Shown here: one piece after another, positions 1,772-17,150 of the stretch
Numbering within the stretch: the first letter of the stretch is position 1
How the letters are laid out: each line of letters begins with the position of its first letter
The notes under the pieces: generated by a model
Told to the model about the DNA's origin: nothing
Database searches by the model: none
The model's input: only the letters and a program-made list of their open reading frames with translations
NCBI GenBank assembly: GCA_049423385.1
Contig: JBMSQQ010000072.1
Span: 1-17,150, forward strand
Source: Silvanigrellaceae bacterium
GTDB taxonomy: Bacteria; Bdellovibrionota_B; Oligoflexia; Silvanigrellales; Silvanigrellaceae
Reading direction: 5' to 3'
Length of the DNA: 17,150 nucleotides
Program-made: the position numbers and the translations under genes

Positions 1772-1780
1772 TTTGTTCCT

Positions 1781-3001
1781 TCAGTGTTGGACAAAGGGTG
1801 TGAGTGAGCGAGCCCAGGAGATGAGTCCGCTCCATCCATCGGGGCCAAATCTTTTTCCATGCTGGAGAGCATTGTTGCGCATCATCGGCAGGACGTCGGG
1901 TTGATTGCAGAGCACGAGAGCCTTTTCCAGCGCATTTGCAAGTCGCTCTGTGACTCCTGCTTCATAAAGAATTGCACAGCTCGACGGTAAAACTTCAGCC
2001 AGGGCTCCGGTATTGCTGCTCACCAGCGGTGTTCCCTGTTGCAGGAATTCAACAGCAACGCGACAAATGACTTCACTGCCAAGACTCGGGATCAATCCGA
2101 AACTCGATTGTCTCATCCACAAAGCGACATCCCTGACCCGTTCATCCAGCACAAGAATACGAATGCGCTTTTGCGGCACTTCGACTAGCCATCGCTTGTC
2201 CGACAGGGCGACGTGTTGAACCTGGAAAGTTGAGCAGGCATGCTCAACCAATGAGAAAGAGTTTACGCTCTGTGATTCCCCGATAAAGACAACTTGCAGC
2301 CACTGATCCTTTTTGAGGTAGTTGTCGATTTGCGCCATGGCCAGTGCGTCGATGGTTTCCTTGTGTCCCTTGACGGGATCGTAACGTCCGACGATCGTGA
2401 AAGTGGGATGCGAGAAATCAAGTGAAAATTTGCGCGAGATGGCCACTGTTTGTGCGGGTGCATCAAGTGAAATAACGGGTTGAGCCAGTTTGGCGGTGCA
2501 ATAGAGATGAATCAGCTTCATTCGCTCTGGCACTTCGAAAGGTGTGCGTTGTTGAACCACGTTTGCAGCAAAGGCAACCCCCGACACGCCATTGTTGTAA
2601 ACCCAACGGTTCAACACGGAAGGCCTCACAGGATTGGCTTGCCCGCGCACTCTCACGAGACGTGTGGAGGACCAAAGTTTTTTATGCAGCAATCTGTGAA
2701 TTGAGCAGAGTGTATGTTCTCTTCCTTCAAACACCCACACAATCGAAGGTTTGTGCGATCTTATGAGTTCCCCGACAGCATGCCAGGTGACAAGAAATCG
2801 CGTGACGGAAAACGGGAACAGCGGAATGGCATTTGTTTGAATCGAGAACTGTGACGCCTTTCGCAAGGCGATGCTGTTGGCGGGTGCGCAATAGATGACC
2901 TTGCTGCTCTGGCGTGAAGAAACATACTGCGCCAATTGCAGGCTGTAATCTGTGACCGCAGAAAACCACGGATTTGAATTGAGAACTATGTGGAAATCCA
3001 T
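1781..3001 (-). CDS. Glycosyltransferase family 4 (GT-B fold), ~406 aa
   Basis: Part of ORF 1781..3112. The likely start is Met38 (ATG at 3001, MDFHIVLNSNPWFSAV), which overlaps the upstream gene by 16 nt. GT4 motifs: IVGRYDPVKGH, and LIPSLGSEVICRVAVEFLQQGTPLVSSNTGALAEV with the E-x7-E donor-binding motif. Confidence 0.88.
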   Translation of the reverse strand: MDFHIVLNSNPWFSAVTDYSLQLAQYVSSRQSSKVIYCAPANSIALRKASQFSIQTNAIPLFPFSVTRFLVTWHAVGELIRSHKPSIVWVFEGREHTLCSIHRLLHKKLWSSTRLVRVRGQANPVRPSVLNRWVYNNGVSGVAFAANVVQQRTPFEVPERMKLIHLYCTAKLAQPVISLDAPAQTVAISRKFSLDFSHPTFTIVGRYDPVKGHKETIDALAMAQIDNYLKKDQWLQVVFIGESQSVNSFSLVEHACSTFQVQHVALSDKRWLVEVPQKRIRILVLDERVRDVALWMRQSSFGLIPSLGSEVICRVAVEFLQQGTPLVSSNTGALAEVLPSSCAILYEAGVTERLANALEKALVLCNQPDVLPMMRNNALQHGKRFGPDGWSGLISWARSLTPFVQH

Positions 3002-3978
3002 GTGTTGCCGCCAACTTTCTTGAAGACAAGAATGATGTTGGAGGCAATATTGCCACTCTCTTCTTCGCTGACAAGTGTTTGTACGGACGAATTTGCACTT
3101 GCGTGGGAGCAAAGCTGCCCAAGGTCGTAGCTCTTTGCGCGATGGTAAACCAGCTTCAAACCATTGGCTTCAGCCCAGCCCAGTGTGTTGGACAAACTGA
3201 GCGGATGGTCGGATGGATGCAAAAACGCGTCTGCGATACGCGCTGGCGAGAAGCCAAGGTACCTGAAACGCAAGGATAACGACTTCTTTGCAAATACCGG
3301 TAGTGCTGCCCGCCACATCCAAAGCCTCAAGCTCGCAAGCATCAGCCGCATTCCGGAGGGTGCCTGCTTGGCTGTGGTGCTTGTCTCTGCGCTCATCACA
3401 GACCACAGGCCGAGGAATTTTTTCTGGACTCCCCGTTCAAGACGCCGACCTGTGCTTGAGTAAATCATCATTCGCAGGGTGCCACCCTGATTGAGGGCGT
3501 TTGACATTGATTTCAACAATTTCTGTGGCTCGGGCTGATGGTGCAACACACCAAAGCACTGAATATGATCAAACAAGCCATGGGCAGGCAGTGCGTGGTT
3601 GGCATCGCCATGTTCAAGTTCGATGGGCTTCAGTTGGTGCCAACGGATTTTTTTGTCGGCACGTCGCAGGGACTTGAGGCTCAAGTCGAAGCCGACGATT
3701 GGATTGTGTGGATGCAGGACGCGAAAAAGGAGAGGTTCGTCCGTGCCACAGCCCACAAGGGCAATCTTCTTTTTGTCCGAAAAGGCATGGCGCAAATCGC
3801 GCAACTTGAGATCGCGAACAGCCTCTTCCGACAAGTTTTTTTGACCTTGAGCAACAATGGCTGAAAAACCAGCGTGCGCTTCAAGCGAACCGTTGGGATT
3901 CGGACTGAGGAAAAAAGGCCTTCCTGGATAGGGAAACAGTTCATAAAAAAACTGCATTCTTTCCAGGAACGGATTCAT
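2986..3978 (-). CDS. Class I SAM-dependent methyltransferase, ~330 aa
   Basis: ORF 2986..4020; the likely start is ATG at 3978 (Met15), 17 nt after the KS stop. Motif I KIALVGCGTD, post-I IVGFDLS, motif II FDHIQCFGVLHH, motif III ALNQGGTLRMMIY. It also has N-terminal FYELFPYP and C-terminal DAFLHP motifs. Substrate unknown. Confidence 0.87.
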   Translation of the reverse strand: MNPFLERMQFFYELFPYPGRPFFLSPNPNGSLEAHAGFSAIVAQGQKNLSEEAVRDLKLRDLRHAFSDKKKIALVGCGTDEPLLFRVLHPHNPIVGFDLSLKSLRRADKKIRWHQLKPIELEHGDANHALPAHGLFDHIQCFGVLHHQPEPQKLLKSMSNALNQGGTLRMMIYSSTGRRLERGVQKKFLGLWSVMSAETSTTAKQAPSGMRLMLASLRLWMWRAALPVFAKKSLSLRFRYLGFSPARIADAFLHPSDHPLSLSNTLGWAEANGLKLVYHRAKSYDLGQLCSHASANSSVQTLVSEEESGNIASNIILVFKKVGGNTWIST

Positions 3979-3995
3979 GCCGCTTGCATCTGTTG

Positions 3996-5630
3996 TTATT
4001 GAATTCTCGACAGTACGCATGACGATATCCCACCAATCCCCATGCTGAGTTTGCCGCAGACGAGTCCGTCTGGCGCTTCAACCGTCAGGGCCTTGTCTGT
4101 TGCCAAATGACGACCTACCTCGCGGATGCTCGGATGAACCCGGTCAGCCGAAATGCCGGAACCTGTGAGTGTAAAGACTTTGCCGTTCTTTCGCGTCGAC
4201 AAAAGTTGGGCTGTGAGTTCCCAGCCACCGCACGTTGACATGCCGTGACCAAAAATTCCCTTGCGTGCCGTGATGATTGTTGACGCCGGAAGATTGTCGA
4301 TCAGTTTGAATTCCGACCAGTCACCCGGCGTGCCTGTGGCATGCATGTCCCAGGTGTGAACGTCTTTGGGTGCAATTCCCGCTTGCTCGAATGCATCGCG
4401 GATGCAGAGTTTCGGACCTTCCATGGAGGGCGTGATGATGTGCTCGGCATCGGAACTCAATCCAACGCCAAGAATTTCCACTCCAAGAGACTTTTGGCCC
4501 AACTTTTCCATGACGTCGTCGGCTGCAAGAATCCAGGTGCAGGCTCCGCCAGCCACGTGGGTTCCACGCAAATCACACAACGGGACACCTACATTGCAGC
4601 CGGCCGCAAGAACCTTGGCGGCATTGAATCCAGCAACCAATTCTGGCGGTGGTGGAAGGTCGGTCGTACCGATGATTGCGGCATCGTAATCGCCTGAGCG
4701 AATGCCATCGACGGCTTGGCGCAAAACCAAGCCAAACGTGGCGCATGCTCCGATGGATGCATAAGAAACACCATGGATTCCGTGCAACATCGAAACTTGG
4801 GCTGCGGGTGCGTTTGGCAGGTTCCAAAGCATGTTTGCATTCACGGCTTCCCATGGGGGAACAGGATGTTTCCACTTTTCCTGCAAAGCCTTTTTGGCTT
4901 TCGTCTTGGCACGAATCACGTTCAGTTTGTCGTTGGCAACATCTGCACCAATCGTGATGGATTCCATGGCGTTGAATTCGCGCAGATAGTCCTGCAGTGC
5001 ATCCGATTTTTTGCTCCAGTAGGTATCCCAGGTTTCCCAGGCTGCTGCGCGTTCAGGTGAGTCGATTTCGAAGGTTGTGGGTGACGTGGGTGCGTTTGTA
5101 TCCGTGTGTTTGCCGCTGATGTGCTCGGCCAAAGCTTTGCAGCGTTCTGGATGAGCCCAGAATTTGTTCCACACGCGCTCGGCGGATTTGTATTCATCAT
5201 GACCGATGAAATAGGCCGTCAGGTCGCCAAAACCGCTGCCGTAGCAGACGTAGACCCGAGGGTCGATTTTTTTGAGGGCTTGTTCGAGTCCGGGATTGCT
5301 TTCCAGAGCGTCAATCGAAGTTCCGACCGCCATACGGACGTGAGAGTATCCTTTGTCTGAAAGCTGTGTGAACTTGTTGTTGGGGTGGCGTTGGCTGATC
5401 CAGTCGCGATAGACTTCGAAATCAAATTTGGGCTTGCCGATCAGGAACGCTCCCTGAAACTGCTCAATTGGGCTCAAGGCCGGCTTGCCTTCCTGCACCA
5501 GGGCCAGAAATTCGCGGAGGTTGGCTGCCCCTGGCGAGCAGATGCCGACACCATAAAGCGAAATCTTGCGATTTGGCTTGGAATGTCCGCGTGTTTCATG
5601 GGATGTTGGCGAATTTGTTGCGTTTGCCAC
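3996..5630 (-). CDS. Stand-alone beta-ketoacyl synthase (KAS I/II, FabB/FabF-like) with a large insertion, 544 aa
   Basis: GTG start at 5630 with GGAGGG SD at 5639-5644. Catalytic Cys296 in SIGACATF (codon 4743-4745), His in DMHATGTPGD, Lys and His in TARKGIFGHGM, C-terminal SMGIGG, N-terminal GVGICSPG and GSGFG. Confidence 0.9.
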   Translation of the reverse strand: MANATNSPTSHETRGHSKPNRKISLYGVGICSPGAANLREFLALVQEGKPALSPIEQFQGAFLIGKPKFDFEVYRDWISQRHPNNKFTQLSDKGYSHVRMAVGTSIDALESNPGLEQALKKIDPRVYVCYGSGFGDLTAYFIGHDEYKSAERVWNKFWAHPERCKALAEHISGKHTDTNAPTSPTTFEIDSPERAAAWETWDTYWSKKSDALQDYLREFNAMESITIGADVANDKLNVIRAKTKAKKALQEKWKHPVPPWEAVNANMLWNLPNAPAAQVSMLHGIHGVSYASIGACATFGLVLRQAVDGIRSGDYDAAIIGTTDLPPPPELVAGFNAAKVLAAGCNVGVPLCDLRGTHVAGGACTWILAADDVMEKLGQKSLGVEILGVGLSSDAEHIITPSMEGPKLCIRDAFEQAGIAPKDVHTWDMHATGTPGDWSEFKLIDNLPASTIITARKGIFGHGMSTCGGWELTAQLLSTRKNGKVFTLTGSGISADRVHPSIREVGRHLATDKALTVEAPDGLVCGKLSMGIGGISSCVLSRIQ

Positions 5631-5638
5631 CTGTCAGA

Positions 5639-5644
5639 CCCTCC
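5639..5644 (-). promoter_or_regulatory. Shine-Dalgarno of the KS gene, inside a GC-rich hairpin cluster
   Basis: GGAGGG on the minus strand, 8 nt upstream of the GTG at 5630. Confidence 0.7.
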
Positions 5645-5751
5645 GGACAGCCGGAGCCAAAGCCCCGGCGTGATTCTTGAAACCATTCGAAGTCTTAAAA
5701 AACGTCTGATGTTAATGCCTGATTTCGCAGGGTCGGGCAAGCAAACTGGTC

Positions 5752-5780
5752 TTGACTAATGGAAGCCAACTCGATAAAGC
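5752..5780 (+). promoter_or_regulatory. Putative sigma70 promoter of tRNA-His
   Basis: TTGACT (5752-5757), 17-nt spacer, then a weak -10 TAAAGC (5775-5780), ending 15 nt before the tRNA. Confidence 0.45.
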
Positions 5781-5795
5781 CTCGCCAACCGTCGT

Positions 5796-5872
5796 GGTGG
5801 CTGTAGTCAAGCGGTTAAGACAATGGATTGTGATTCCATCATGCGCGGGTTCAAATCCCGTCAGCCACCCCA
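5796..5872 (+). tRNA. tRNA-His (anticodon GTG)
   Basis: Cloverleaf: acceptor GTGGCTG/CAGCCAC with an encoded G-1 (5796) pairing to discriminator C (5869), the His identity element. D arm GTC/GAC, anticodon arm ATGGA-TT-GTG-AT-TCCAT (GTG at 5830-5832), T arm GCGGG-TTCAAAT-CCCGT, encoded CCA at 5870-5872. Confidence 0.97.
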
Positions 5873-6013
5873 TCTTTCCTTATGTTTTTCGCTTCCGCTT
5901 GTTTTTTCAAATGTGAGTGTTGAGTCGCCAACTAGAGAATCGAGTTCGCAGCTCGCATACACCCCCGTGGCGCAGCAGGCCTCTTGTGTCAGGAAAAGAA
6001 CACTCAATCATTT

Positions 6014-6625
6014 CTACCCGCAGTCTGGTTTCGCGTGTCTCTGTTCAACAGAAATGAGGATTTTTTTGATCTGGTAGGTTGAGGGAATTATCACTGCAAA
6101 GCCGGCGCCCGACAACGCGTCCCCGCTTGGACAATTTCTTCCGGGCATAGATCTGATCAACTTCAGAACGGCATCAGCACGATCCTTCGCACCATCAGCC
6201 CGCTGGATTCCGTCGATACTGATGGAACAACACGTATCTCGATATGATTCGTGCACAATAATCAGTGAATTGGTCTTGAAATCAATCTGCGGAAGGCGTT
6301 CTTGCGGATAGAACAACGCGAAAGCACTTTTCAATTCACTGTCATTCGTTATGACGCGCCAGACAACACCATTGTCGCTTTCTCTTTTCCATCCGCTAGA
6401 GTTCAGCTTGAGAGTTTTGAAGGGAATTTCTTCAGGCTTGACGGACTTTGCCTCATGCTTGACGGACTTTGCCTCATGCTTGACGGACTTTGCCTCAGGC
6501 TTGACAGCAAATTCCTCGAGTTCCCCTCCATCGGACGAGTTGACTGTGTGTGTGCAGCTCACTGCGGCAAGGAAGAAGACTAAGAAAAATCTCTCGATAA
6601 AATGAGAGCTCACTATGGTTTTCAT
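6014..6625 (-). CDS. Putative lipoprotein with a PrcB C-terminal-like domain, 203 aa
   Basis: Hydrophobic FFLVFFLAAVS followed by Cys24 (lipobox-like AVS-C). The C-terminal segment LPQIDFKTNSLIIVH...SISIDGI...PGRNCPSGDALSGAGFAVIIP resembles the PrcB_C pattern (P-x-[VI]-DF ... I-x-I ... P ... AL[TS] ... V-x-IP), recognised by eye. Confidence 0.7.
   Translation of the reverse strand: MKTIVSSHFIERFFLVFFLAAVSCTHTVNSSDGGELEEFAVKPEAKSVKHEAKSVKHEAKSVKPEEIPFKTLKLNSSGWKRESDNGVVWRVITNDSELKSAFALFYPQERLPQIDFKTNSLIIVHESYRDTCCSISIDGIQRADGAKDRADAVLKLIRSMPGRNCPSGDALSGAGFAVIIPSTYQIKKILISVEQRHAKPDCG
6432..6505. repeat. 21-bp in-frame tandem repeat, 3.5 copies
   Basis: Unit tca(g/t)gcttgacggactttgcc at 6432, 6453 and 6474, plus a partial copy at 6495-6505. 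Encodes VKPEAKS-VKHEAKS-VKHEAKS-VKPE. Confidence 0.97.
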
Positions 6626-6712: not shown

Positions 6713-7720
6713 TCAAATACTGTCCACAAACTCAAGTCCGCGGGCTTTTGGCTTGAGGCCTTTTTCGTTGAGCCAGTTGTCGTTGAACAGTCGGCTCAAA
6801 TAGCGACCGGCTCCGTCGCAAAGAATCGTGACAATTGTTTTGCCCGGGCCCAACGTGCGGGCAAGCTTGACTGCACCCAGAACATTGAGTGCGGCCGAAG
6901 AACCCAAAAACAAACCTTCGCGATAAGCCAGGTGATGAACCATTTCGAGAATGGGTTCGTCTGGAATTCTCATGGCGTCGTCGATTGGTGCGCCTTCAAT
7001 GTTGGCCGTGACGCGAATTTGCCCGATGCCCTCGGTGATCGACCCCCCAACAACATCATTCAAGTGTCCGTTTTTGAACCAGCTGTACATCGCTGCGCCC
7101 ATCGGATCGACGCACACTGCTTTTATTTTGCTGTTTTGCGATTTCAAATAGCGGGCCACGCCACCAAGTGTTCCGCCGGAACCAACCGCGGTCACGAATC
7201 CATCGATTTGTCCTTTGGTCTGATGCCAAATCTCGGGTCCGGTGGTCTTTTCGTGGAACTCACGATTGGCAACGTTGTCGAATTGATTGGCCCAAACAGC
7301 GTTGGGAATTTCTTCTGCCAAACGACGTGCGACGTGGTTGAAGTTTTCCGGATTCGAATACGGCACCGCCGGCACGGGGCGCACATCGGCACCAATCGCG
7401 CGCAGGTATTCGAGCTTTTCTTGTGATTGGGTGTTGGGAATCACAATGATGGTTTTGTAGCCAAGTGCATTCGCAACATGTGTCAGGCCGATGCCAGTGT
7501 TTCCTGCGGTGCCTTCGACGATGGTTCCGCCGGGCTTGAGCGCGCCTCGTTGGATCGCGTCAAGAACGATTCCCAATGCTGCCCGGTCTTTGACCGAACC
7601 GCCTGGATTCAAGAACTCAGCTTTTCCGAGAATCCGACAACCGGTGAGTTTGGACAGGCCTGGAATTTCGATGAGTGGTGTGTTGCCGACCGCGCCGCAG
7701 AATCCGTTCGAAATACTCAT
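6713..7720 (-). CDS. cysK: Cysteine synthase (O-acetylserine sulfhydrylase, PLP fold type II), 335 aa
   Basis: VGNTPLI, PLP-lysine motif GKAEFLNPGGSVKDRAA, substrate loop EGTAGNTG, NQFDN, phosphate loop VGSGGT, TEGIG, EGLFLGSSA and TILCD. GAGGA SD before the ATG at 7720. Confidence 0.94.
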   Translation of the reverse strand: MSISNGFCGAVGNTPLIEIPGLSKLTGCRILGKAEFLNPGGSVKDRAALGIVLDAIQRGALKPGGTIVEGTAGNTGIGLTHVANALGYKTIIVIPNTQSQEKLEYLRAIGADVRPVPAVPYSNPENFNHVARRLAEEIPNAVWANQFDNVANREFHEKTTGPEIWHQTKGQIDGFVTAVGSGGTLGGVARYLKSQNSKIKAVCVDPMGAAMYSWFKNGHLNDVVGGSITEGIGQIRVTANIEGAPIDDAMRIPDEPILEMVHHLAYREGLFLGSSAALNVLGAVKLARTLGPGKTIVTILCDGAGRYLSRLFNDNWLNEKGLKPKARGLEFVDSI

Positions 7721-7869: not shown

Positions 7870-9351
7870 TCAGGGAGCTGCTCTTCTTCCAAAGGTCGTC
7901 ACTTCGAATTTGCCATTGACAAGTGTGGTCACCGAAAGACCTTCGCCAGTTGCTGCGGGTGTGCTCGAACTGCATGGGAATTCCAAGCCGGTTTCTCCCC
8001 AGTGCAACGGCGAATCATGTTTGGAGACGAGATGCTTCCAGCGGCATTGGGACGACTTTTCATTCACTGCCAGAAGAGCATTCTTTCCATCCCGGCTGAA
8101 CACCACCTGGCGTCCCGCAAACGGAAGGCTGGTTTTTGTTTCACTTTGATCACCGACCAGGAAATGTCCAAACGCAGTGCGACGCAGAACGTGACCTGGA
8201 AAAAGTTCCAGCTCGGAAATGTTCCGTCCTCGGAAAGGAAGGGTGCCGACGATTTTCTGCTTCGCAGCAGAGGCTGTCAGGCTGATGTGAAAGATTTTAA
8301 GTTGACCAGCTTCCATGCTCCATGCATGCAGGCTTTCGGAGTTTGCATCGTCTTGCATTGCTGCATCTATGCCTTCTGTGAGCTTCCGAACAACTCCTTG
8401 CAGGTTGTTTGAAAAGTCTCCAAGACCAAACACACAATTCTTGTAAACAACGAATTGCGGGTTGAGCTCCAGCGGAACGCCACTGCAGGATTCCCTGGCT
8501 GCCCTGGACCTGGAGTTGACATGCTCTTCCCAGACACTTTGATCCGCAGTCAAGGAGCCATTCCATACCTGGCCGTTCGGGCCCACCAAGAGCCCGCGCT
8601 CGGCAAGAAGGTCGACCGTTAAAAAGTATCTTTCAAATTGAATTCTCATCAGCCCGCGGTGCTCGGCCGCAAAGAAAAATGCCTTTCCCAATTTTTCGGG
8701 TGAAAGATTTTGCGGAAAGGAAGTGATTGAAAGAAGTCTGCGCCCCCGTTCGGAATCAACAATGTGGAGTCGCGATGCAGTCGTCACCAGAGTTAATTGG
8801 CGAGGAAGCACCGGGCTTCCACCTTCCAGTGCGTTCTTGATGACAAAACCCGGGATCTGAATTTCGCATTGACTGCCCCCACGACACACCCTGCGCGGAT
8901 TCACCAGGGTGAGCTCAAGGGGCCCTGTTTCAAACACCCTTGCACCTGCAACGGGTGGTTGAAGTTTGCTTTCCACAACGTCCGTCATGCTGCAGGATGA
9001 TTGTCCCCCGGGACCAGGAGCACAAATCTTCGCGACGGGTTTCTCTCCACTGTTTGAAAGAACAACGGTCATTCGCTTGTTTTTCCATTCTTCGGGGATA
9101 GGCCTTTTCCAAACAAAGGCAACATTGGCTTGATGCAGGTTTTCAGCGCCAACAAAAGGAAGTGTGAGTTCATCGTTGTAGTGGTTGACCTCGGTTGATA
9201 TCCACGTCCGCAGAGCTTCGGAAAATGGTGGAGGCGAAAATCGTGAGCGCAGAACATCATTGGCCGATGCCCACAGAGACAAACCCAGGCAAGCAAGGAT
9301 TCCGGCCACGTGAGGAATCTTGAATGGAGTTCTGTTGGAAAGGTTCCTCAT
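7870..9351 (-). CDS. Secreted hypothetical protein, ~493 aa
   Basis: Long ORF 7870..9381. Best start is ATG at 9351 (GAGGT 6 nt upstream); an alternative ATG at 9375 forms an ATGA overlap with the giant gene's stop. Sec-type signal ...VAGILACLGLSLWASA|ND. Eight Cys in the mature part fall into four local pairs. No family recognised. Confidence 0.75.
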   Translation of the reverse strand: MRNLSNRTPFKIPHVAGILACLGLSLWASANDVLRSRFSPPPFSEALRTWISTEVNHYNDELTLPFVGAENLHQANVAFVWKRPIPEEWKNKRMTVVLSNSGEKPVAKICAPGPGGQSSCSMTDVVESKLQPPVAGARVFETGPLELTLVNPRRVCRGGSQCEIQIPGFVIKNALEGGSPVLPRQLTLVTTASRLHIVDSERGRRLLSITSFPQNLSPEKLGKAFFFAAEHRGLMRIQFERYFLTVDLLAERGLLVGPNGQVWNGSLTADQSVWEEHVNSRSRAARESCSGVPLELNPQFVVYKNCVFGLGDFSNNLQGVVRKLTEGIDAAMQDDANSESLHAWSMEAGQLKIFHISLTASAAKQKIVGTLPFRGRNISELELFPGHVLRRTAFGHFLVGDQSETKTSLPFAGRQVVFSRDGKNALLAVNEKSSQCRWKHLVSKHDSPLHWGETGLEFPCSSSTPAATGEGLSVTTLVNGKFEVTTFGRRAAP

Positions 9352-9371
9352 GATGCGACCTCGTCTTGGCT

Positions 9372-12300
9372 TCATGGGCACGTGTTCGTTGCCTGAGTTG
9401 TCGTGAAACTGATCCCGCTGAAACTGCTGCTTGCTTCAGGGTCAAGCTGAAGCGTGGTGGTGTTGCCTGTGGTTGTTCCTTCGATCGTCACAGAACAACT
9501 GCCGCCGGCAGCGATGCTGGATGAGCAGCCGTTGTTTGTAATTGTTGCGCCATTTGCATTTGTGATGCTTGGGCTTCCTGCTGCGATATTGAAGGCATTG
9601 AGTGTATTGTCGTTATGGAACGTGACGGTCAAACGCCTGATGCCGGAAACACACGACCACGCGCTTTCGACGGGTCGCAGCGACTGGCTGCAGTTGGGCG
9701 CGTTGGTGTTGCCTGCAATCGCAGCCACAGCGTTGTTCATGCTCACAAACGAGGGTGCGGATGGCGTCGACACCACCGTCGCATCGCCAAGAGACTGGCC
9801 CGTGGTTCCGGGGAAAGTCAACGTGCAGTTGGAGCCATTGGCGAGACTTCCCGAACATCCGCTGTTCGGGGTGGGAGTCACTGTCATGCTGGCAATGTCG
9901 TAGCCCGTGCCGTTGTTGAATGTGCATGTGGATTGAGGTGCTCCTGCACTGCAAGTCCAGGCCGAGCAGGTCAGTGTGGGTGATTTCACAATCGATCCTG
10001 TGAGGGTCACCGCCTTGGTCAGGGCTCCGATGGTGCACGTGAGCGTTCCGTTCACATGCGTGTTCGAGTTCGTGACAGTGGTCGTGTTGCTGCTCGTGGT
10101 TTGCGAGAGCGTCGCCGCCGCTGCGGGTGATGTTGGTGAATACGTCCATGTGCCACAGGTGACGAGGCCTCGACCATTGCCAAATTGATCCTCGCCCCAG
10201 GCCGACACCGCGGGGCAGGCGACGGTCGTGCCACTGGTGCAGGTCGTGGTTGGAAGCGAAGTGTTGTATGCCGGTTGCGCACTGGAGGATGTTGACAGCA
10301 GGATGTTGTTCAAGCTGTCTGCATTTTGCACCGTGATTCCTGAAGTGTCGGCTGTCAATCCGCAGGCTGATGCGCGGATGATTTGTCCACTTCCAACCTT
10401 CTTGAGAATCACGGAACCCGAATTGAACGTGCCGATTGATCCCAGCGCCAACGCACCGGGGAAAACTGCTGTCGAACCGCCCGGAGAACTCAAGTTTCCG
10501 GTTGCAGTTTCGCCCAGTGTAGCCGTTGTGCAGCCAGTGGAAGTCAGATTGCCAAATTCGTCCTTTGCAGTCACGCTCACCGACACACTTCCACCCGCTG
10601 TTGTCACGGTGGTGGAGCCTGCGGTGGCAAAGAGTGCAGAGGCAGTGGCGGGCAGGACACTGTTGAACGTCACTGCGGTGGATTGAATTGAGGTCGCGAA
10701 GTCTGAACCAAAAATGCCTGCTGCGATCGTTCGTGCAGTCGAGTCTGCCTTCACGAAGTTGAAATTGTGGGTGCCGGTGTTGATGCCGTTTGAGAATGAC
10801 AAGCTCACCGATGAATTTTGACCAAAGGGAGTGTTCACGCCAGTGCCGGAGGTGGACCAGCCCGAGTTTGCTGCGCCGCTGAGTGCAACAGCGTTTGTGT
10901 TCCAATAGATTGTTCGGGTGCCGTATGTTGCACCGCTCACGTGGCTTGCAACAACAGTGTTTCCAGCCTTTTGGGCATTCAATGTGATGTTGGTGATTTT
11001 CAGGTTGCCCACGGCTGCTGTCAGATTGGTGCTCGACGTGATTGCGTTGTTGCCGGAATCCTGCGCCGTGATGGCAACCGATTTGACGCCACCCCAAACC
11101 GTCAGGGCTGCAGAGGCGCCGGTCTTGTTGCAGGTCAGTGTGCCATCCAGCCACTTCTGGTTGCTTGAGTTTGTGATTCCGGAGAAACGCGAGTTCGCTG
11201 CACCTGACGCAGAGTAGCCGCTTGGGTTGGCAGTGGGTGTTGTAACCCCGGTGAAGCTCCACGATGTGCAGACATCATCATTCGTTCCGGCGGTCTTGCT
11301 CGACGAGGTGATTTGATTTCCGTAGGCATCCCAGAACCACGCGTAAGCACTGCCGCAGCTCACAGCAAAGGGCGACGTCGTGCTGTTGTTGCAAATCATT
11401 TCACTGTCGGAAGTGGTGCTGCGGGCATCGGCCGTGGTGATGCGGGAGACTGCCGGGGATGCTGCCTTCACCGTGATATTTGGAGATGTTGTCGCGTTCA
11501 AGCCACAGGCAGAGATATTGAGTGTTTGTGTGGTGCGCGCATCAAAAAGTTTGAGACCGGAAATGGTGTAAACACCGGGCATACTCTGGGAACCAAGACC
11601 CGTGACTCCGGTTGACGTGGAGAACGACGTGGAGGTTGTTCCGGTGGGGCCATCATTCGGAGAAGTCGTGGGGCCGGTGACAATCACACTGCCCGGGCAT
11701 CCGGTTGCCGTTGGGTTCCCCTGGTCATCGGTAACCAGCAAGCTGAGGCCGAAGGCGTTTCCGGCTGTGACCGTTGTGGGAGGGGCAGCACTCACGGCAA
11801 CCGTTGCTGCAGTGCCTGCGTTGACGTTGAAACTCGATTGGGTGGCTGCCACTCCATGCACGGAAACATCAAACGTCACAGCCGTCTGTGCGGCAGTGAA
11901 ATTGAGCAGGTAGGGAGCGCTTGAGACGTTGCATTCCAACACCGTGGATCCCGAAAAGGTGCACGACTTGATTGCGGGAGATGAAGATGTGTTTGTGAGT
12001 TGAAGGCCGTCTTGACCGTTTTGCAGATAAGCCCCGGTTGAGTTGCTCATAAACCTGATTGTCTTGCTCAGGTTTTTGGTTGGCGCTGTCAGGTTCCCGG
12101 CTTTGGGTGTTTGAACCGTCACCCTTGAAACCTGAACATTTCCCACACCCGCAACAATACTGGAACCCGAAACGTTGTGGGTCACCGTCACCGTGCTCAC
12201 GCCACCCCACAGGCGGATTGTTCGACTGAGCGACGCACGCGTGCAGGTGAGTTGTCCATTGAAATATGTGGCCGTCGAGTGGGTAGGAGTGACCGATGAC

Positions 12301-15300
12301 ACGTTCGAAATGGCGGCGGTCAAATTCGAGGGTGTTGGAGCTGTGTCAGTCGTGACATAGCTCCATGTGTCGCACGTATCAGCACGCAGATTTCCCCAGT
12401 TGTCCCAAAAGCGCGCCTGCAGTTCAACACATTGAACAACTCCGGTGGTGGAGTTGTTTTCGCATTCGTATTCGTTCAGTGCTGTGGTGTCCACGCTTGA
12501 TGTATTTGTGTTCACCACCATGTTCGTCACGGTGGCTGGAGCCACGGTCAAGGTGTACGGAGTCGTCACACCACATGCCGCGAGCGTCAATTGTGTGTTG
12601 CTCGTATTGTAGAGGGTGATGTTGCTGGGTTGGTAGACACCACTTGTGGGCGCAGTCGAAACTGCCGAGAATGTTCCGGTCGTTCCGACGGAATTGCTGC
12701 TGTTTCCGGGTGAACTTCTGGTTTGCCCGGCAGGCAAATCAACCGTCAAGTTGTCGCTTGCGCAGGATGGGTTCCCGGCTGCCGCAGAGGTGGTTGTGCG
12801 GTTGGCATACAGATCCTGCACTTCCGCTTCGATGTTGAACGGTGTGCCTGCAGTGAGAGCCGGCAAGCTGCTGGCAGTAGAACTGTTGAAGCTGGTGAGG
12901 AGAACTTTGTTTGCCGCTGCGGGCTGCACCGAGAACGCGATGGAGTTGGATGTGATTCCATAAACCGTGGCGCTGATGGTTTTTGCATTCTCTGCCTTGA
13001 TGAGATTGAACTTGTATGTTGCAGCCGAATAGCTATCGGCGGTAGAAAGGCTGCCGTTGGCGAACGTCACGCTCGGTTGCTGCGCGAGCCCGCGCTGGAG
13101 CGTTGCACCCGTGCCGCCTGTGCCCCAGCCGTTGCCGTTCGTGGCTGTTGAATTCCATGTGAGCGTTCTGCTTTCAGAAATGGGCGAAGGAGTATCCACA
13201 CCACTTTTGGTTGTGCGCAGGTTGACTGCCGAAATGGCCAGATTGCCCGAAGCCGCGGTGAGCGTCGGATTGGTTGAAGTGATGTCTGTGTTGGCGGCAC
13301 TGCGCGCAACAATCCTGACCTCCTTCACGCCACCCCAAGCCGTGATAGATAGGGGTGTGGCCAATGGAGATTTTGTGCACGAAATCGCGCCATCGACGTA
13401 GGTGTTTGTTCCCTTGTTTCCAAGCGTGACGCTTGCTGCCGCGGTTGTGGCAATGTTGATTGCGTCGGGACGAGTCTGGGGGTCGAAACTCCATGAATCA
13501 CAGTTGCCATAGCTGCCAGTGAGATTGTTTCCATAGGTGTCCCAGAAATAGGCGTAAACCGTTTTGCTGGAACAATCGAGTTGGTTGTTGGATGCGTGCA
13601 TCGGGCATTTCACCTCACTTTCTGCAGTGTTGACCGCTCCTGCAGTGGTGCGCAAAACCCCCGTTGCCGCGCTGGCAGGATTCACAATCACTGACACTGT
13701 TGCCGGGGAAAGGCCGCAGCCCGAGACTGAAAGTGATTCACTCGCTGATGCCCGATAGAGAACAACATTGCTGATGCTGTGCAGCCCAGTGCTTGCAATA
13801 CTGCTGGTGCCGTAATTCGGGTTGTTGCCGGCCGGAGATGCACCACTGCCTGACAAGGACAGCGGTGTTGTGCACTCGCTGCCGGAAGTGTTTTTGCTGG
13901 TGCGATTGAGGTGGATGTCTTGAATTTCGACGTCGAAACTGAATTGGCTTCCTGCGGTTTTGGCACTGAGCGTTGGCAATACAAACGCATGTGCATTTCC
14001 AGGATTCACCGTGATTCCGGTGTAGCTCAAAGTTTTTCCTTGAATCCGAAGCGTCAGCGCGTTGCTGGTCGAAGCAGCCGTGTAATTCAAATTCAAGGCA
14101 TCGCTCGTCACCCCGTTGGTCGCAAACGTTCTGGTGACAATGCTGTTGGTGGTGTCGCGTCCTGATTCAGTCACGCTCACAATCTTCAAGAAATTATTCT
14201 GTGAGGAGCCCGTGTCCACGTGTATTTTGCTGAGGGTTGAGCTTTGAACAAGCGGTCTTGTGGCAACATCAAAACCGCCCCGGCGTTGGTACAGGGTCAA
14301 ACCCGTGAAAGTCACGTTGCCCGTGGCGGCTGTCAGAGTTGCGCCTTGCAAGGTGGCTGGAGTTGTGCTGGAGACGTTGATTTTCGACAATCCGCCGTAG
14401 ATATTGCTGATTGAAGCCACCTTTAGGTCCTTGCTGCACGAGAGTGTCCCATCAATAAAATCAGTTGCAGTCAGTGTTGCTGTTCCGCCTGTGAAGGTGG
14501 TGGTGGGAACTGTCGCAGCCGTCAGGCCGGTTGGGAAGTTGGTATAGTTCCAACTGCAGCTCACGGGAGATCCGCCGTTGAGGCTGTTGCCCCAGTCGTC
14601 CCAGTAATACGCTTTGATGGATCCGCAATTCACGTTGCTGTTCGTGGGCGAATTCGATGTGAGTGAACATTCGTAACTTGTTGTTTCCGCCGTCACGCTC
14701 GTGTCGTTTGCAGCTGTGGACAAAAAGCCGATACGAGCAACATTGGGGCTGACGGCGATAATCTTTGTATTGCTGACACCGCAACCTGCAAAAGAAACAG
14801 TGGTTGGTCCTGTTTTGTACAGGGTGATGGTTGATTTGTATTCCCCGGGATTGCTTTGCACCAAGGGGTTTGGAGGATCTGCCGTGGGTGCGACCGCTTG
14901 TCCACCATTTTTTCCACTTGAAGTGTAGGTCGCGGTGTCGATGCCAAAACCAATTGTGGAACACTGTGCACTGGTGCTGCCGTTGATCCATGTGTTGGTC
15001 GGGTTGCCGAACTGATCCTTCATCACCACAGTGACATTGGACAAGGCTATTCCTGCTGTGGCGTTTGCCGGAACACTTGAGACGTCGATTTGCGATGCCG
15101 GGCCCGCGTCAACGCTTCTGCCCCAGACGACGTTTTTTCCGTTCAGGCTGAGTGTAATGTTGCCCGCAGTCGCAGCTGTTCTCAGATAACCTGTAAACGT
15201 GCTGCCGCACTCGGATCTGGTTGTGGAGTTGGCAAGAATGCACGTTGGGTTTGTCGGCATGGAATCAAGCACAACGGCTCTTGTGATGGTGAATTGCTTG

Positions 15301-17150
15301 GCTGCGATTATTTCGCTCGCGGGCAAGGGGACCAACTCTCCGTTTTTGCTTGCCGACACCTTGATGCCCTGAATCACCATTTTTGTTCCAGCGGGGACAT
15401 TCGAGGAAGTGATGATCGTATTGCTCAGGTCGGTGAACTCGGCAGTTGCTTCCAGATTTGCAACGCCGCCCCAATATTTGATGGATTTGGTGACGCCATC
15501 CCGGCTGCAAGAAAGGGTTCCGTCGACGAAGTCGGCAGATGAAACGGTGCGCGAAGAACCTTGTCCGGCCAAATTGTTTGGTGATTTGATGTCAAGGCTG
15601 TGCTGCGCCGTGGGATTGTTCCACGACCACTCGCAGGAGCTGCCGGTGGGGTCGATTCTGTTGCCAAAGGCATCCCAGAAGAACGAATACACTGTTCCAC
15701 AATTCGTTTCTGCAGTTGCAGATGAGGTGTTCGAGCAGGTGCGCTCCACCGAAGAAGAATTGCCGGTAAGTCCAAGATCATCGCTCGCAGGAACTGCAGA
15801 GGAATCACTCAAAACCATGCGATTGACAGGCGCGGTCCTGACGACAACACTCTTTGTGGCGGAGGTAAACCCACAGGCATTCAGGGTCAGACTCTGCGTT
15901 CCACTTTTGAACAGTGTCATGCCGTTGAGGGAATAATAACCCTTGCCGGGGATCTTGCTGATCGAGAAAGGTATTGAATTGGTTGCGTCGCCGCCCCATC
16001 CGCCAGTTGATGTTCCAGTTCCTGTCGGCACGGACAAGGCGATTCCAGCACTGCAGCCAATATCACTGAGATTACCAAATGCGTCGACAGTTTTGGCTGT
16101 CAATGAGAAGGGTACGCCCGCGACTTGCTGCGGGATGCTTCCACCATCAGACGGTATCACGACCCCGGAGGCTTGAACGGCGGCTTCGATGACATCGAGT
16201 GAATTTTCGTTTTCTCCCTCAATCCCTGCATTGTCGCTGACAACAAAAGTGCTTTTTCCGATTCTCTCTGATTTGTACAGACGCATTTCTCGAGAAGCGA
16301 CACCATTCACCCAGACCGCAGATCCGAAAAGAGGAGCTGTGTTGTTGGGCGATGTTCCGGCTCCCGAAAAAGTCAGGGTGCGTTCGTTGAGCTGGCTGTC
16401 CAGGGTGGTGATCACATTGTTGGCATAATCCAATGCCTTCATTGTCATTGTCTGCAGCGTACCTGCGGTGAATGTCGCGTTGGAAAAAATCAACTTGTAA
16501 TTTCGAATCGACAATGGTGTGTACTCGAAGTTCATTTCAACAGGTTGTGCCAAGGCTACCTGAACATTCATCAGTTTGAATTGGACTCGATGACCCACCG
16601 GGTACCAGACGTCGCTGAAAGTTATCTCGGAATCCATGTTGAAAAGTGAGGTCTCGCGGGATGTGTTTGCAAATTCGCCGGCGGAAGTGAATACGCCTGA
16701 GACGTCTCCCGGTCCGGTGATTTTTTCGGCCGCCAATTTCAAGCCGGCGGGACCTGGGGCCGGATTCCGCCACTCGTCAAAAAGCTTGATGGTGAGGTCG
16801 AAACGTCCATCAGTGGAGTTTTCAGCCTTGCGCGCAGAATGAGAACTCAGAATTTGATATTCGTGGACCGGCCCAGGTGAGACGATGATAGGCTTCGGGT
16901 ACGAACCCTGACGGCCTCCAGAAAGACTGTCCCGGATCGTCAATGCATTTGCGGCCAAAGATTCCGCTTTAAAGAACCTGAGATCAGCCCATGCCTGCCC
17001 TGAATAAAATCGCAGGGAGCTGGGCAAAATGGGCGCTGTTTGTAAACTATCGTTGGCCTGCGATGGACCACTCCATCGGAATGTAAACGCGTCAAGTGTG
17101 GCGTCGATGCCTGCGACAACGTCACCGTAGGAATCCACGGCATTGATGTA
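9372..17150 (-). CDS. Giant repetitive, disulfide-rich, Ig-like surface protein / putative adhesin (>2,592 aa; 5' end outside the window)
   Basis: The frame is open from the TGA at 9372-9374 to the window edge. Codons upstream of the track's GTG at 17138 read YINAV, so that start is an edge artefact. S/T/G/A/N-rich beta-strand composition, with recurring D-x-[FYW]-GN motifs typical of bacterial Ig-like repeats. Confidence 0.92.
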   Translation of the reverse strand, partial: YINAVDSYGDVVAGIDATLDAFTFRWSGPSQANDSLQTAPILPSSLRFYSGQAWADLRFFKAESLAANALTIRDSLSGGRQGSYPKPIIVSPGPVHEYQILSSHSARKAENSTDGRFDLTIKLFDEWRNPAPGPAGLKLAAEKITGPGDVSGVFTSAGEFANTSRETSLFNMDSEITFSDVWYPVGHRVQFKLMNVQVALAQPVEMNFEYTPLSIRNYKLIFSNATFTAGTLQTMTMKALDYANNVITTLDSQLNERTLTFSGAGTSPNNTAPLFGSAVWVNGVASREMRLYKSERIGKSTFVVSDNAGIEGENENSLDVIEAAVQASGVVIPSDGGSIPQQVAGVPFSLTAKTVDAFGNLSDIGCSAGIALSVPTGTGTSTGGWGGDATNSIPFSISKIPGKGYYSLNGMTLFKSGTQSLTLNACGFTSATKSVVVRTAPVNRMVLSDSSAVPASDDLGLTGNSSSVERTCSNTSSATAETNCGTVYSFFWDAFGNRIDPTGSSCEWSWNNPTAQHSLDIKSPNNLAGQGSSRTVSSADFVDGTLSCSRDGVTKSIKYWGGVANLEATAEFTDLSNTIITSSNVPAGTKMVIQGIKVSASKNGELVPLPASEIIAAKQFTITRAVVLDSMPTNPTCILANSTTRSECGSTFTGYLRTAATAGNITLSLNGKNVVWGRSVDAGPASQIDVSSVPANATAGIALSNVTVVMKDQFGNPTNTWINGSTSAQCSTIGFGIDTATYTSSGKNGGQAVAPTADPPNPLVQSNPGEYKSTITLYKTGPTTVSFAGCGVSNTKIIAVSPNVARIGFLSTAANDTSVTAETTSYECSLTSNSPTNSNVNCGSIKAYYWDDWGNSLNGGSPVSCSWNYTNFPTGLTAATVPTTTFTGGTATLTATDFIDGTLSCSKDLKVASISNIYGGLSKINVSSTTPATLQGATLTAATGNVTFTGLTLYQRRGGFDVATRPLVQSSTLSKIHVDTGSSQNNFLKIVSVTESGRDTTNSIVTRTFATNGVTSDALNLNYTAASTSNALTLRIQGKTLSYTGITVNPGNAHAFVLPTLSAKTAGSQFSFDVEIQDIHLNRTSKNTSGSECTTPLSLSGSGASPAGNNPNYGTSSIASTGLHSISNVVLYRASASESLSVSGCGLSPATVSVIVNPASAATGVLRTTAGAVNTAESEVKCPMHASNNQLDCSSKTVYAYFWDTYGNNLTGSYGNCDSWSFDPQTRPDAINIATTAAASVTLGNKGTNTYVDGAISCTKSPLATPLSITAWGGVKEVRIVARSAANTDITSTNPTLTAASGNLAISAVNLRTTKSGVDTPSPISESRTLTWNSTATNGNGWGTGGTGATLQRGLAQQPSVTFANGSLSTADSYSAATYKFNLIKAENAKTISATVYGITSNSIAFSVQPAAANKVLLTSFNSSTASSLPALTAGTPFNIEAEVQDLYANRTTTSAAAGNPSCASDNLTVDLPAGQTRSSPGNSSNSVGTTGTFSAVSTAPTSGVYQPSNITLYNTSNTQLTLAACGVTTPYTLTVAPATVTNMVVNTNTSSVDTTALNEYECENNSTTGVVQCVELQARFWDNWGNLRADTCDTWSYVTTDTAPTPSNLTAAISNVSSVTPTHSTATYFNGQLTCTRASLSRTIRLWGGVSTVTVTHNVSGSSIVAGVGNVQVSRVTVQTPKAGNLTAPTKNLSKTIRFMSNSTGAYLQNGQDGLQLTNTSSSPAIKSCTFSGSTVLECNVSSAPYLLNFTAAQTAVTFDVSVHGVAATQSSFNVNAGTAATVAVSAAPPTTVTAGNAFGLSLLVTDDQGNPTATGCPGSVIVTGPTTSPNDGPTGTTSTSFSTSTGVTGLGSQSMPGVYTISGLKLFDARTTQTLNISACGLNATTSPNITVKAASPAVSRITTADARSTTSDSEMICNNSTTSPFAVSCGSAYAWFWDAYGNQITSSSKTAGTNDDVCTSWSFTGVTTPTANPSGYSASGAANSRFSGITNSSNQKWLDGTLTCNKTGASAALTVWGGVKSVAITAQDSGNNAITSSTNLTAAVGNLKITNITLNAQKAGNTVVASHVSGATYGTRTIYWNTNAVALSGAANSGWSTSGTGVNTPFGQNSSVSLSFSNGINTGTHNFNFVKADSTARTIAAGIFGSDFATSIQSTAVTFNSVLPATASALFATAGSTTVTTAGGSVSVSVTAKDEFGNLTSTGCTTATLGETATGNLSSPGGSTAVFPGALALGSIGTFNSGSVILKKVGSGQIIRASACGLTADTSGITVQNADSLNNILLSTSSSAQPAYNTSLPTTTCTSGTTVACPAVSAWGEDQFGNGRGLVTCGTWTYSPTSPAAAATLSQTTSSNTTTVTNSNTHVNGTLTCTIGALTKAVTLTGSIVKSPTLTCSAWTCSAGAPQSTCTFNNGTGYDIASMTVTPTPNSGCSGSLANGSNCTLTFPGTTGQSLGDATVVSTPSAPSFVSMNNAVAAIAGNTNAPNCSQSLRPVESAWSCVSGIRRLTVTFHNDNTLNAFNIAAGSPSITNANGATITNNGCSSSIAAGGSCSVTIEGTTTGNTTTLQLDPEASSSFSGISFTTTQATNTCP
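9990..16130 (-). repeat. Six degenerate protein-level super-repeats (~353-380 aa, domains A-B-C; the last copy lacks C)
   Basis: Anchor motifs FFWDAFGN (15677), YYWDDWGN (14603), YFWDTYGN (13544), RFWDNWGN (12407), WFWDAYGN (11333) and WGEDQFGN (10193) give spacings of 358, 353, 379, 358 and 380 codons. Boundaries are approximate. Confidence 0.88.

Follow-up and report, generated by a model that had tools for sequence, protein, structure and literature searches.

The window analysed here, 17,150 nt long, is the entire contig JBMSQQ010000072.1 (C72) from assembly GCA_049423385.1 of a Silvanigrellaceae bacterium (3.47 Mb in 183 contigs; completeness 90.6%, contamination 1.8%). Translation of the window revealed a single minus-strand reading frame, which enters at the contig end, position 17150, and runs down to a stop codon at 9372-9374. 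The 2,592 residues specified by this frame most likely form the distal, C-terminal part of a giant lipoprotein, the whole length of which is probably ~4,700-4,800 amino acids (aa). The encoded part carries a super-repeat of three alternating, cysteine-patterned domains (A, B and C), and the protein is rather likely to be a lipid-anchored, disulfide-stapled, immunoglobulin (Ig)-like surface fibre or adhesin with the A-B-C array as its rod.

When the window protein was searched by BLASTP with its own units of ~370 aa, each unit recovered the other five at 24-32% identity (E 1e-13 to 1e-46), and this unit-to-unit similarity is far above the chance level. Hidden Markov models (HMMs) of the separate domains, built from 57 family units, detected 17 domains between residues 324 and 2388 in the strict order ABCABCABCABCABCAB, each at E 1e-10 to 1e-27. 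Their bounds extend from A1 (324-436), B1 (437-564) and C1 (565-680) to A6 (2166-2275) and B6 (2274-2388). An earlier, sequence-only reading of this DNA had proposed an A-B-C repeat at positions 9990-16130. The repeat proved to be real, its span corresponds to residues 341-2387, from A1 to the end of B6, and the motifs quoted for the three domains recur in the 57-unit consensus. The number of units had to be revised: instead of six full units, the family HMMs define five and a sixth that consists of A and B and has no C. At the DNA level, repetition was limited to one 21-nt row of Tandem Repeats Finder and one family of a 32-nt motif, which underlies the FWD-x-x-GN sequence of domain B. The near absence of DNA-level repeats indicates that the units are old and arose without recent duplication.

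Directly after B6 follow two mutually related domains of ~100 aa each, D1 (residues 2388-2492) and D2 (2493-2592). The D domain forms the extreme C-terminus in 19-23 relatives, mostly in two or three copies, while other subfamilies of giants end in different C-terminal domains. A conserved stalk combined with a variable C-terminal domain is the pattern expected of adhesins. If the N-terminus is the anchor, the D domains are the distal tip. Their motif 'GC.g.l..g..C.l.f' presumably resembles that of ASH or 'choice-of-anchor'-type domains, a likeness that no family scan confirmed, and no match to the D tip was found in Pfam, NCBIfam or the PDB. The window protein and a relative from genome G005 (L009) both terminate in Cys-Pro.

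The earlier statement that the repeat corresponds to no described sequence family was borne out. Pfam and NCBIfam gave no match for the whole 2,592-aa protein (E ≤ 1). When the A, B and C domains and the two terminal pieces were scanned singly with Pfam, no match was significant at E ≤ 10, and residues 1-323 had none at all at the same threshold; the best match of the C-terminal 206 aa, DUF5979 at E 8.7, was non-significant. All six A-B-C relatives scanned with Pfam were equally blank. A homologue search with unit 4, in which 8,000 candidates of 1,425-4,536 aa were scored, recovered the window's own protein and nothing else, and no paper describing the A-B-C family was found in full-text literature searches. 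The protein adds four unannotated domain families (A, B, C and D) and a super-repeat with a strict period of three domains, and Pfam and NCBIfam leave such proteins blank.

Predicted fold and cysteine pattern

Three Ig-like β-sandwiches per unit were anticipated by the sequence-only reading, and the structural modelling agrees with it. A first AlphaFold2 model based on an alignment of the six window units only reached a predicted local distance difference test score (pLDDT) of 59.8 and was excluded from the fold search. The 57-unit alignment, which comprised five window units and 52 from eight loci in other genomes, gave a model of unit 3 with pLDDT 91.1 and a predicted TM-score (pTM) of 0.85. 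This model is all-beta, with domains at residues ~1-112, 113-229 and 230-365 and a disordered loop at 293-305, and its top Foldseek matches include SbsC, FdeC, InvD, cadherins and titin. Taken together, the model and these matches lend good support to a predicted rod of three Ig-like β-sandwiches per unit. In a profile search of the PDB, domain A matched the Ig-like gamete adhesion protein FUS1p (E 7.7e-5) and FdeC (E 0.39); domains B and C had no match to solved structures by sequence profile, and membership in the Big_1 or filamin families is not well supported. Comparison of the domain profiles with hhalign revealed a single motif common to A and B, D-x-F-G-N...C, over 19 columns (E 2.8e-4). 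The A-C and B-C comparisons did not reach significance, so the sequence gives no proof that C shares ancestry with A and B.

The window protein is rich in Thr (14.5%) and Ser (13.3%), and Ala, Gly and Asn are also abundant. It is not enriched in either type of N-glycosylation sequon sought: 61 N-x-S/T sequons were counted against 52 +/- 6 in shuffled sequences, and two D/E-x-N-x-S/T sequons against 2.7. An exact count on the translation gave the 50 Cys reported earlier, the first of them at residue 366. Their even number per domain was likewise reproduced, with two in each A copy (6/6), four in each B copy (6/6) and 2, 0, 0, 2 and 0 in the successive C copies, and the remaining 10 are held by D1 and D2 in a 6/4 split. 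In the 57-unit alignment six Cys columns are kept in 56-57 units: C46, C98, C146, C170 and C211 (unit-3 numbering) are Cys in all 57 and C135 in 56, and W173 is Trp in 56 of the 57. The Cys pair of domain C is complete in 48 of these units and missing altogether from nine, with no unit carrying a single Cys.

This pattern was followed in a set of 158 sequences, composed of 150 library hits (window duplicate removed), the window protein and eight open reading frames (ORFs) from genomes. Domain B occurs in 53 of them, which reach 5,782 aa in length and show arrays of the form (A-B-C)n or (A-B)n in which as many as 13 stretches matched; the other hits consist of A-like domains in tandem, free of Cys. 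All four Cys are kept in 172 of the 195 B-domain copies, and among all C domains of the set both Cys are present in 128, neither in 35 and a single one in two. In B-bearing proteins, 169 of 235 copies of domain A contain both Cys, compared with 2 of 729 copies of the A-like domain across 103 A-only proteins. The near absence of the pair from A-only proteins implies that the Cys staples are derived and specific to the B-bearing family.

From these data, the pairs C46-C98 in domain A and C170-C211 together with the short-range C135-C146 in domain B would form disulfides. In terms of motifs, the A pair would join the Cys after the D-x-F-G-N loop to that of the [AG]CG hairpin, and the motif common to A and B suggests that this pair is equivalent to C170-C211. 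The Cys columns of domain C lie at model positions 314 and 321, opposed on a predicted hairpin (strands 313-315 and 320-322), where they may form an optional cross-strand disulfide. The proposed pairing is thus backed by conservation, strict co-loss and one hairpin geometry, and the conserved cysteine pairs point to oxidative folding in the periplasm before display.

Features of the window belonging to the giant protein and its neighbour (positions in nt)
Feature	Coordinates	Strand	Details
Giant ORF, 3' part	9372..17150	minus	2,592 codons + stop; 5' end open at contig end
Cys-free stretch preceding the super-repeat, residues 1-323	16182..17150	minus	aligns to P0061 residues ~2100-2420
Unit 1	15111..16181	minus	A1 15843-16181, B1 15459-15842, C1 15111-15458; Cys 2+4+2
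Unit 2	14010..15110	minus	A2 14754-15110, B2 14385-14753, C2 14010-14384; Cys 2+4+0
Unit 3 (modelled unit)	12915..14009	minus	A3 13686-14009, B3 13323-13685, C3 12915-13322; Cys 2+4+0
Unit 4	11823..12914	minus	A4 12546-12914, B4 12195-12545, C4 11823-12194; Cys 2+4+2
Unit 5	10671..11822	minus	A5 11472-11822, B5 11082-11471, C5 10671-11081; Cys 2+4+0
Unit 6, incomplete, without C domain	9990..10670	minus	A6 10332-10670, B6 9990-10331; Cys 2+4
Tandem Cys-rich terminal D domains	9375..9989	minus	D1 9675-9989 (6 Cys), D2 9375-9674 (4 Cys)
503-aa ORF, signal-peptide-like start	7870..9381	minus	overlaps the giant's stop

N-terminus, export and cellular location

The lipid anchor is proposed from related N-termini. 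In the ORFs of three relatives (L007, L013 and L014) the N-terminus consists of a basic segment, then a hydrophobic one and the sequence L-x-[SA]-C. In the genome of the window itself, two contig-end ORFs, on contigs C106 and C59, are candidates for the missing N-terminus, and both carry a lipobox-like signal. The C106 candidate (2,071 aa, signal ...GALS-C-SKT) is collinear with residues 33-2010 of the related sequence P0061 and then runs off its contig; residues 2100-2566 of P0061 match window residues 2-444 at 40% identity. By this common collinearity with P0061, C106 and C72 would adjoin each other, separated by ~90 codons. The C59 candidate (282 aa, signal ...LLAS-C-SGG) shares 57.7% identity with the N-terminus of the giant in genome G010 and shows conserved synteny. 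A search for an exact overlap of the C72 end with the C106 start or the C59 end found none. On the sequence comparisons, the joining of C106 and C72 into one gene of ~4,750 aa is favoured. Neither the C59 fragment nor the initial 2,700 aa of L007, a complete relative, matched a β-barrel family, and by inspection with the eye only, no barrel was noticed in the C106 N-terminus.

Two further long ORFs were observed in the same assembly. On the minus strand of contig C5 (2-5293) lies a third giant N-terminal fragment of 1,764 aa, with a lipobox-like ...LQSA-C-SS, which runs off the contig end; it contains many repeats of ~100 aa ending in 'VCDN....NCT', a repeat type unlike the A-B-C family. The largest ORF of the assembly, a Thr/Ser-rich frame of 4,870 aa, is located on the minus strand of contig C27 (10439-25048). 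It is only ~20% identical to the window protein, in long gapped alignments made with composition correction off, and the similarity is therefore probably compositional.

According to the proposed mechanism, the protein would be exported by Sec and then lipidated at its N-terminal Cys, fold in the oxidising periplasm with formation of its disulfides, and finally be displayed on the cell surface. It would form a long fibre tethered by the N-terminal lipid, with a Cys-poor proximal part and with a distal half built as a rod of 17 Ig-like β-sandwiches (five A-B-C units, then A-B), each of its domains disulfide-stapled. Such a rod might act as a stiff spacer resisting protease and force, with the D1-D2 tip as the putative binding end. 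For the passage across the outer membrane, a type II secretion system (T2SS) would be one option, as for InvL. DsbA-family genes number five in the genome, and T2SS-type genes are present, among them those for a GspG pseudopilin and three secretins.

Surface exposure, the outer-membrane export route and adhesion are the deduced elements of this scheme, and a location in the periplasm or the medium has to be weighed against them. The disulfides and the lipobox prove periplasmic entry only, and they would also suit a structural fibre of the periplasm tethered to the inner or outer membrane, or cargo shed to the medium. InvL and PulA are reported to be partly released from cells (PMC9245377). However, with over 40 Ig-like domains the rod would far exceed the width of the periplasm, and the relatives retain the distal tip domain. 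A periplasmic or released protein appears very improbable.

A lipid-anchored surface fibre is still the preferred reading, and several points weigh against it. The lipoprotein signals were assessed by eye against the lipobox consensus, the assembly contains only part of the gene, and its N-terminus is ambiguous between C106 and C59. Expression, surface exposure and binding are presumed, and the putative disulfides are argued from evolution rather than from Cys-Cys distances. Moreover, no established route is known by which a folded lipoprotein of ~5,000 aa crosses an outer membrane, and the T2SS route, which InvL shows to exist for a small protein, might by analogy serve one of ~4,750 aa.

Gene neighbourhood, distribution and divergence

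The stop codon of the giant gene is overlapped by the start of an ORF for a 503-aa protein, which has no Pfam, NCBIfam or PDB match. It belongs to a rapidly diverging family of secreted, Cys-bearing proteins of ~500 aa, which are encoded directly downstream of giants in five other loci (in genomes G010, G001, G012, G005 and G071); the coordinates of these five are L095:10349-11911, L008:2261-3637, L011:158-1639, L104:127-1674 and L105:3851-4480. One of the six loci belongs to another family of the class. The proteins retain invariant Cys columns despite an identity of 15-21% to the window copy, and this downstream protein may be a partner of the fibre tip. A scan for promoters and terminators at the giant-gene junction gave no signals above the shuffled background. 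Further downstream of the giant gene and its 503-aa partner lies a cysteine synthase-like PALP enzyme (CysK-like, 6713-7720), which is 87% identical to a copy in a metagenome-assembled genome labelled Silvanigrellaceae, the next-best matches being ≤64%; this places the organism in the Silvanigrellaceae lineage of Oligoflexia/Bdellovibrionota. The remainder of the window (1-6625) encodes a 203-aa KHEAKSV-repeat protein, an atypical beta-ketoacyl synthase, an S-adenosylmethionine-dependent methyltransferase, a group-1 glycosyltransferase and an ATP-binding cassette exporter. The genes downstream of the giant and its partner could be a lipid or glycolipid modification set.

In several genomes the giants adjoin a cluster of genes for a tetratricopeptide repeat (TPR) lipoprotein, a 196-aa protein, a 775-aa membrane protein whose C-terminus resembles FliG_C/MgtE_N, MotA, MotB and a 368-aa protein. 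The 196-aa protein was grouped among small outer-membrane barrels in a protein atlas (score 0.97), and the cluster is a non-flagellar MotAB system. It was located on contig C59 of G000 (L097:1100-7580) and in L096, L106, L104:1737-7115 and L105:5287-6658. Relative to the giant it is upstream and divergent in G000 (C59), G010, G006 (C14) and G007 (C219). In G005 (C261) it is downstream and convergent, and in G071 (C26), which comes from a different family of the class, it is downstream on the same strand. Contig C49 of G000 (11272-19875) carries paralogues of the TPR lipoprotein, the small barrel and the 775-aa protein; a MotA-family gene lies ~5 kb from them, and no giant gene adjoins the set.

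These arrangements may suggest that the fibre is a mobile adhesin coupled to a motor, a machine composed of non-flagellar MotA/MotB, the 775-aa FliG_C-like protein, the TPR lipoprotein and the small outer-membrane barrel; by analogy, its role would be like that of SprB in Flavobacterium or CglB in Myxococcus. The giants adjoin the MotAB/FliG_C-like cluster in three arrangements and in two families of the class, and since each of five genomes examined contains 7-11 matches to the MotA_ExbB family, repeated adjacency by chance is unlikely. According to a 2026 review (PMC13104615), neither the adhesins nor the motor of Bdellovibrionota gliding have been identified. For the window giant itself, however, the cluster is absent downstream, and it is also absent upstream on the likelier N-terminal contig, C106. 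In genome G011 (C165) no MotA is encoded within 11.5 kb downstream, the paralogous cluster on C49 stands without a giant gene, and several cases of adjacency are orthologous loci and hence not independent. In the literature consulted, no documentation of gliding in the genus was found. A coupling of the fibre to the motor is considered unlikely. There is a similarly small chance that A-B-C fibres are the surface adhesins missing from a non-flagellar MotA/MotB envelope machine of Oligoflexia/Bdellovibrionota, in which the tri-domain rod would transmit force and the ~500-aa protein would cap or load the tip. Both the adjacency to the MotAB/FliG_C-like genes and the conserved downstream partner provide candidates for parts of surface motility or attachment in the phylum.

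The distribution of the family is narrow. When the six-unit profile was run against 1.84 billion representative proteins, it gave 281 hits at E ≤ 1e-3 and 29 at E ≤ 1e-30, the closest library relatives being fragments of 40-47% identity. The unit is present in 13 of 41 relative genomes, including 10 of 12 others of the same genus and two from other genera of the same family, and it is absent from all 16 genomes of other families of the class in this set. A wider sample of the phylum (unit in 17/131 genomes) added one genome each from four further families of the class. The relatives' ORFs span 2,900-6,900 aa, the largest having 6,945 aa and others 6,311, 6,191 and 5,644 aa. Apart from a handful of further genomes of the class, the family is thus confined to one genus; the freshwater lineage concerned, akin to Silvanigrella and Spirobacillus, has received little study.

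Unit 3 shares only 18-31% identity with units of other genomes of its genus, compared with 63-91% for the genes flanking the orthologous locus, and the stalk is therefore fast-evolving. Fast divergence is typical of exposed surface proteins, and it would also suit a surface coat or brush, in which many protease-resistant rods form an S-layer-like or glycocalyx-like protective or spacing layer against grazers, phages or predators. However, the structural matches to S-layer proteins reflect a generic likeness of Ig arrays (root-mean-square deviation 13-19 Å), and no lattice-forming or S-layer anchoring domain was found in the Pfam and NCBIfam scans. The conserved distal tip domain and the conserved small partner gene fit a binding organelle better than a lattice. 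A surface coat or brush is considered unlikely.

Comparison with known systems

Among adhesins of the invasin/intimin type (FdeC, PDB 4e9l; InvD; InvE), a rod of Ig-like domains with an invasin-like fold, predicted for the window giant, is the feature in common with it. The giant has no match to Big_1 (PF02369), Invasin_D3 or any other Pfam family. Invasins and intimins are anchored by an inverse-autotransporter barrel, whereas lipobox-like N-termini characterise the family of the giant and a barrel was not found. They repeat a single type of domain, in contrast to three alternating types with fixed Cys patterns in a protein about ten times longer, and they carry a C-type lectin-like tip instead of a pair of Cys-rich domains of ~100 aa. 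There is also no match at the Pfam level to Filamin/ABP280 (PF00630) or to GEX2/FUS1 Ig-like domains, and domains B and C are without any sequence match.

Leptospira LigA and LigB are lipoproteins with 12-13 Big_2 domains. The window giant has no Big_2 match and differs from them in being hetero-trimodular, Cys-patterned and far longer. InvL of Acinetobacter baumannii (PMC9245377) is a lipoprotein of 492 aa with three invasin-like Ig domains and a lectin-like cap, whose display depends on the T2SS. It resembles the giant in combining a lipoprotein signal and Ig domains without a β-barrel, and its route would be compatible with periplasmic folding and disulfides. However, at least 19 domains are assigned in the window part of the giant alone, and the two proteins have no sequence relationship.

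The giant adhesins of the type I secretion system (T1SS), such as LapA, SiiE and Bap-like proteins of the RTX type, share with the window giant their size, a stalk of tandem β-sandwiches and, presumably, a distally placed binding region. RTX adhesins are Cys-poor and travel directly from the cytoplasm to the outside, whereas 50 Cys are present in 2,592 aa of the window giant, three domain types alternate, and entry by the Sec/lipoprotein pathway is suggested for its family. The sequence-only reading had drawn this contrast, which appears apt, as the Pfam scan showed no sign of RTX or T1SS and the relatives' N-termini look like lipoprotein signals. The protein would accordingly represent a giant Gram-negative fibre that enters via Sec as a lipoprotein, unlike the RTX build.

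SprB of Flavobacterium johnsoniae is a giant surface filament of ~6,500 aa and ~150 nm (PMC13104615). The likeness lies in the giant size and in the position of A-B-C giants beside a motor-like cluster in several genomes. That cluster is of the MotAB/FliG_C type, not gld. No C-terminal domain of the type IX secretion system was found in Pfam or NCBIfam, phylum, anchor and domains differ, and the link to a motor is one of gene neighbourhood only.

Summarizing, at the level of fold the giant belongs to a known class, the Ig-like rod adhesins of the invasin/FdeC/InvL/Lig-like kind. The proposal of a new adhesin or fibre architecture therefore holds for the domain families and their super-repeat, which are new, and does not extend to the fold class or the kind of machine, which are shared with these known adhesins.

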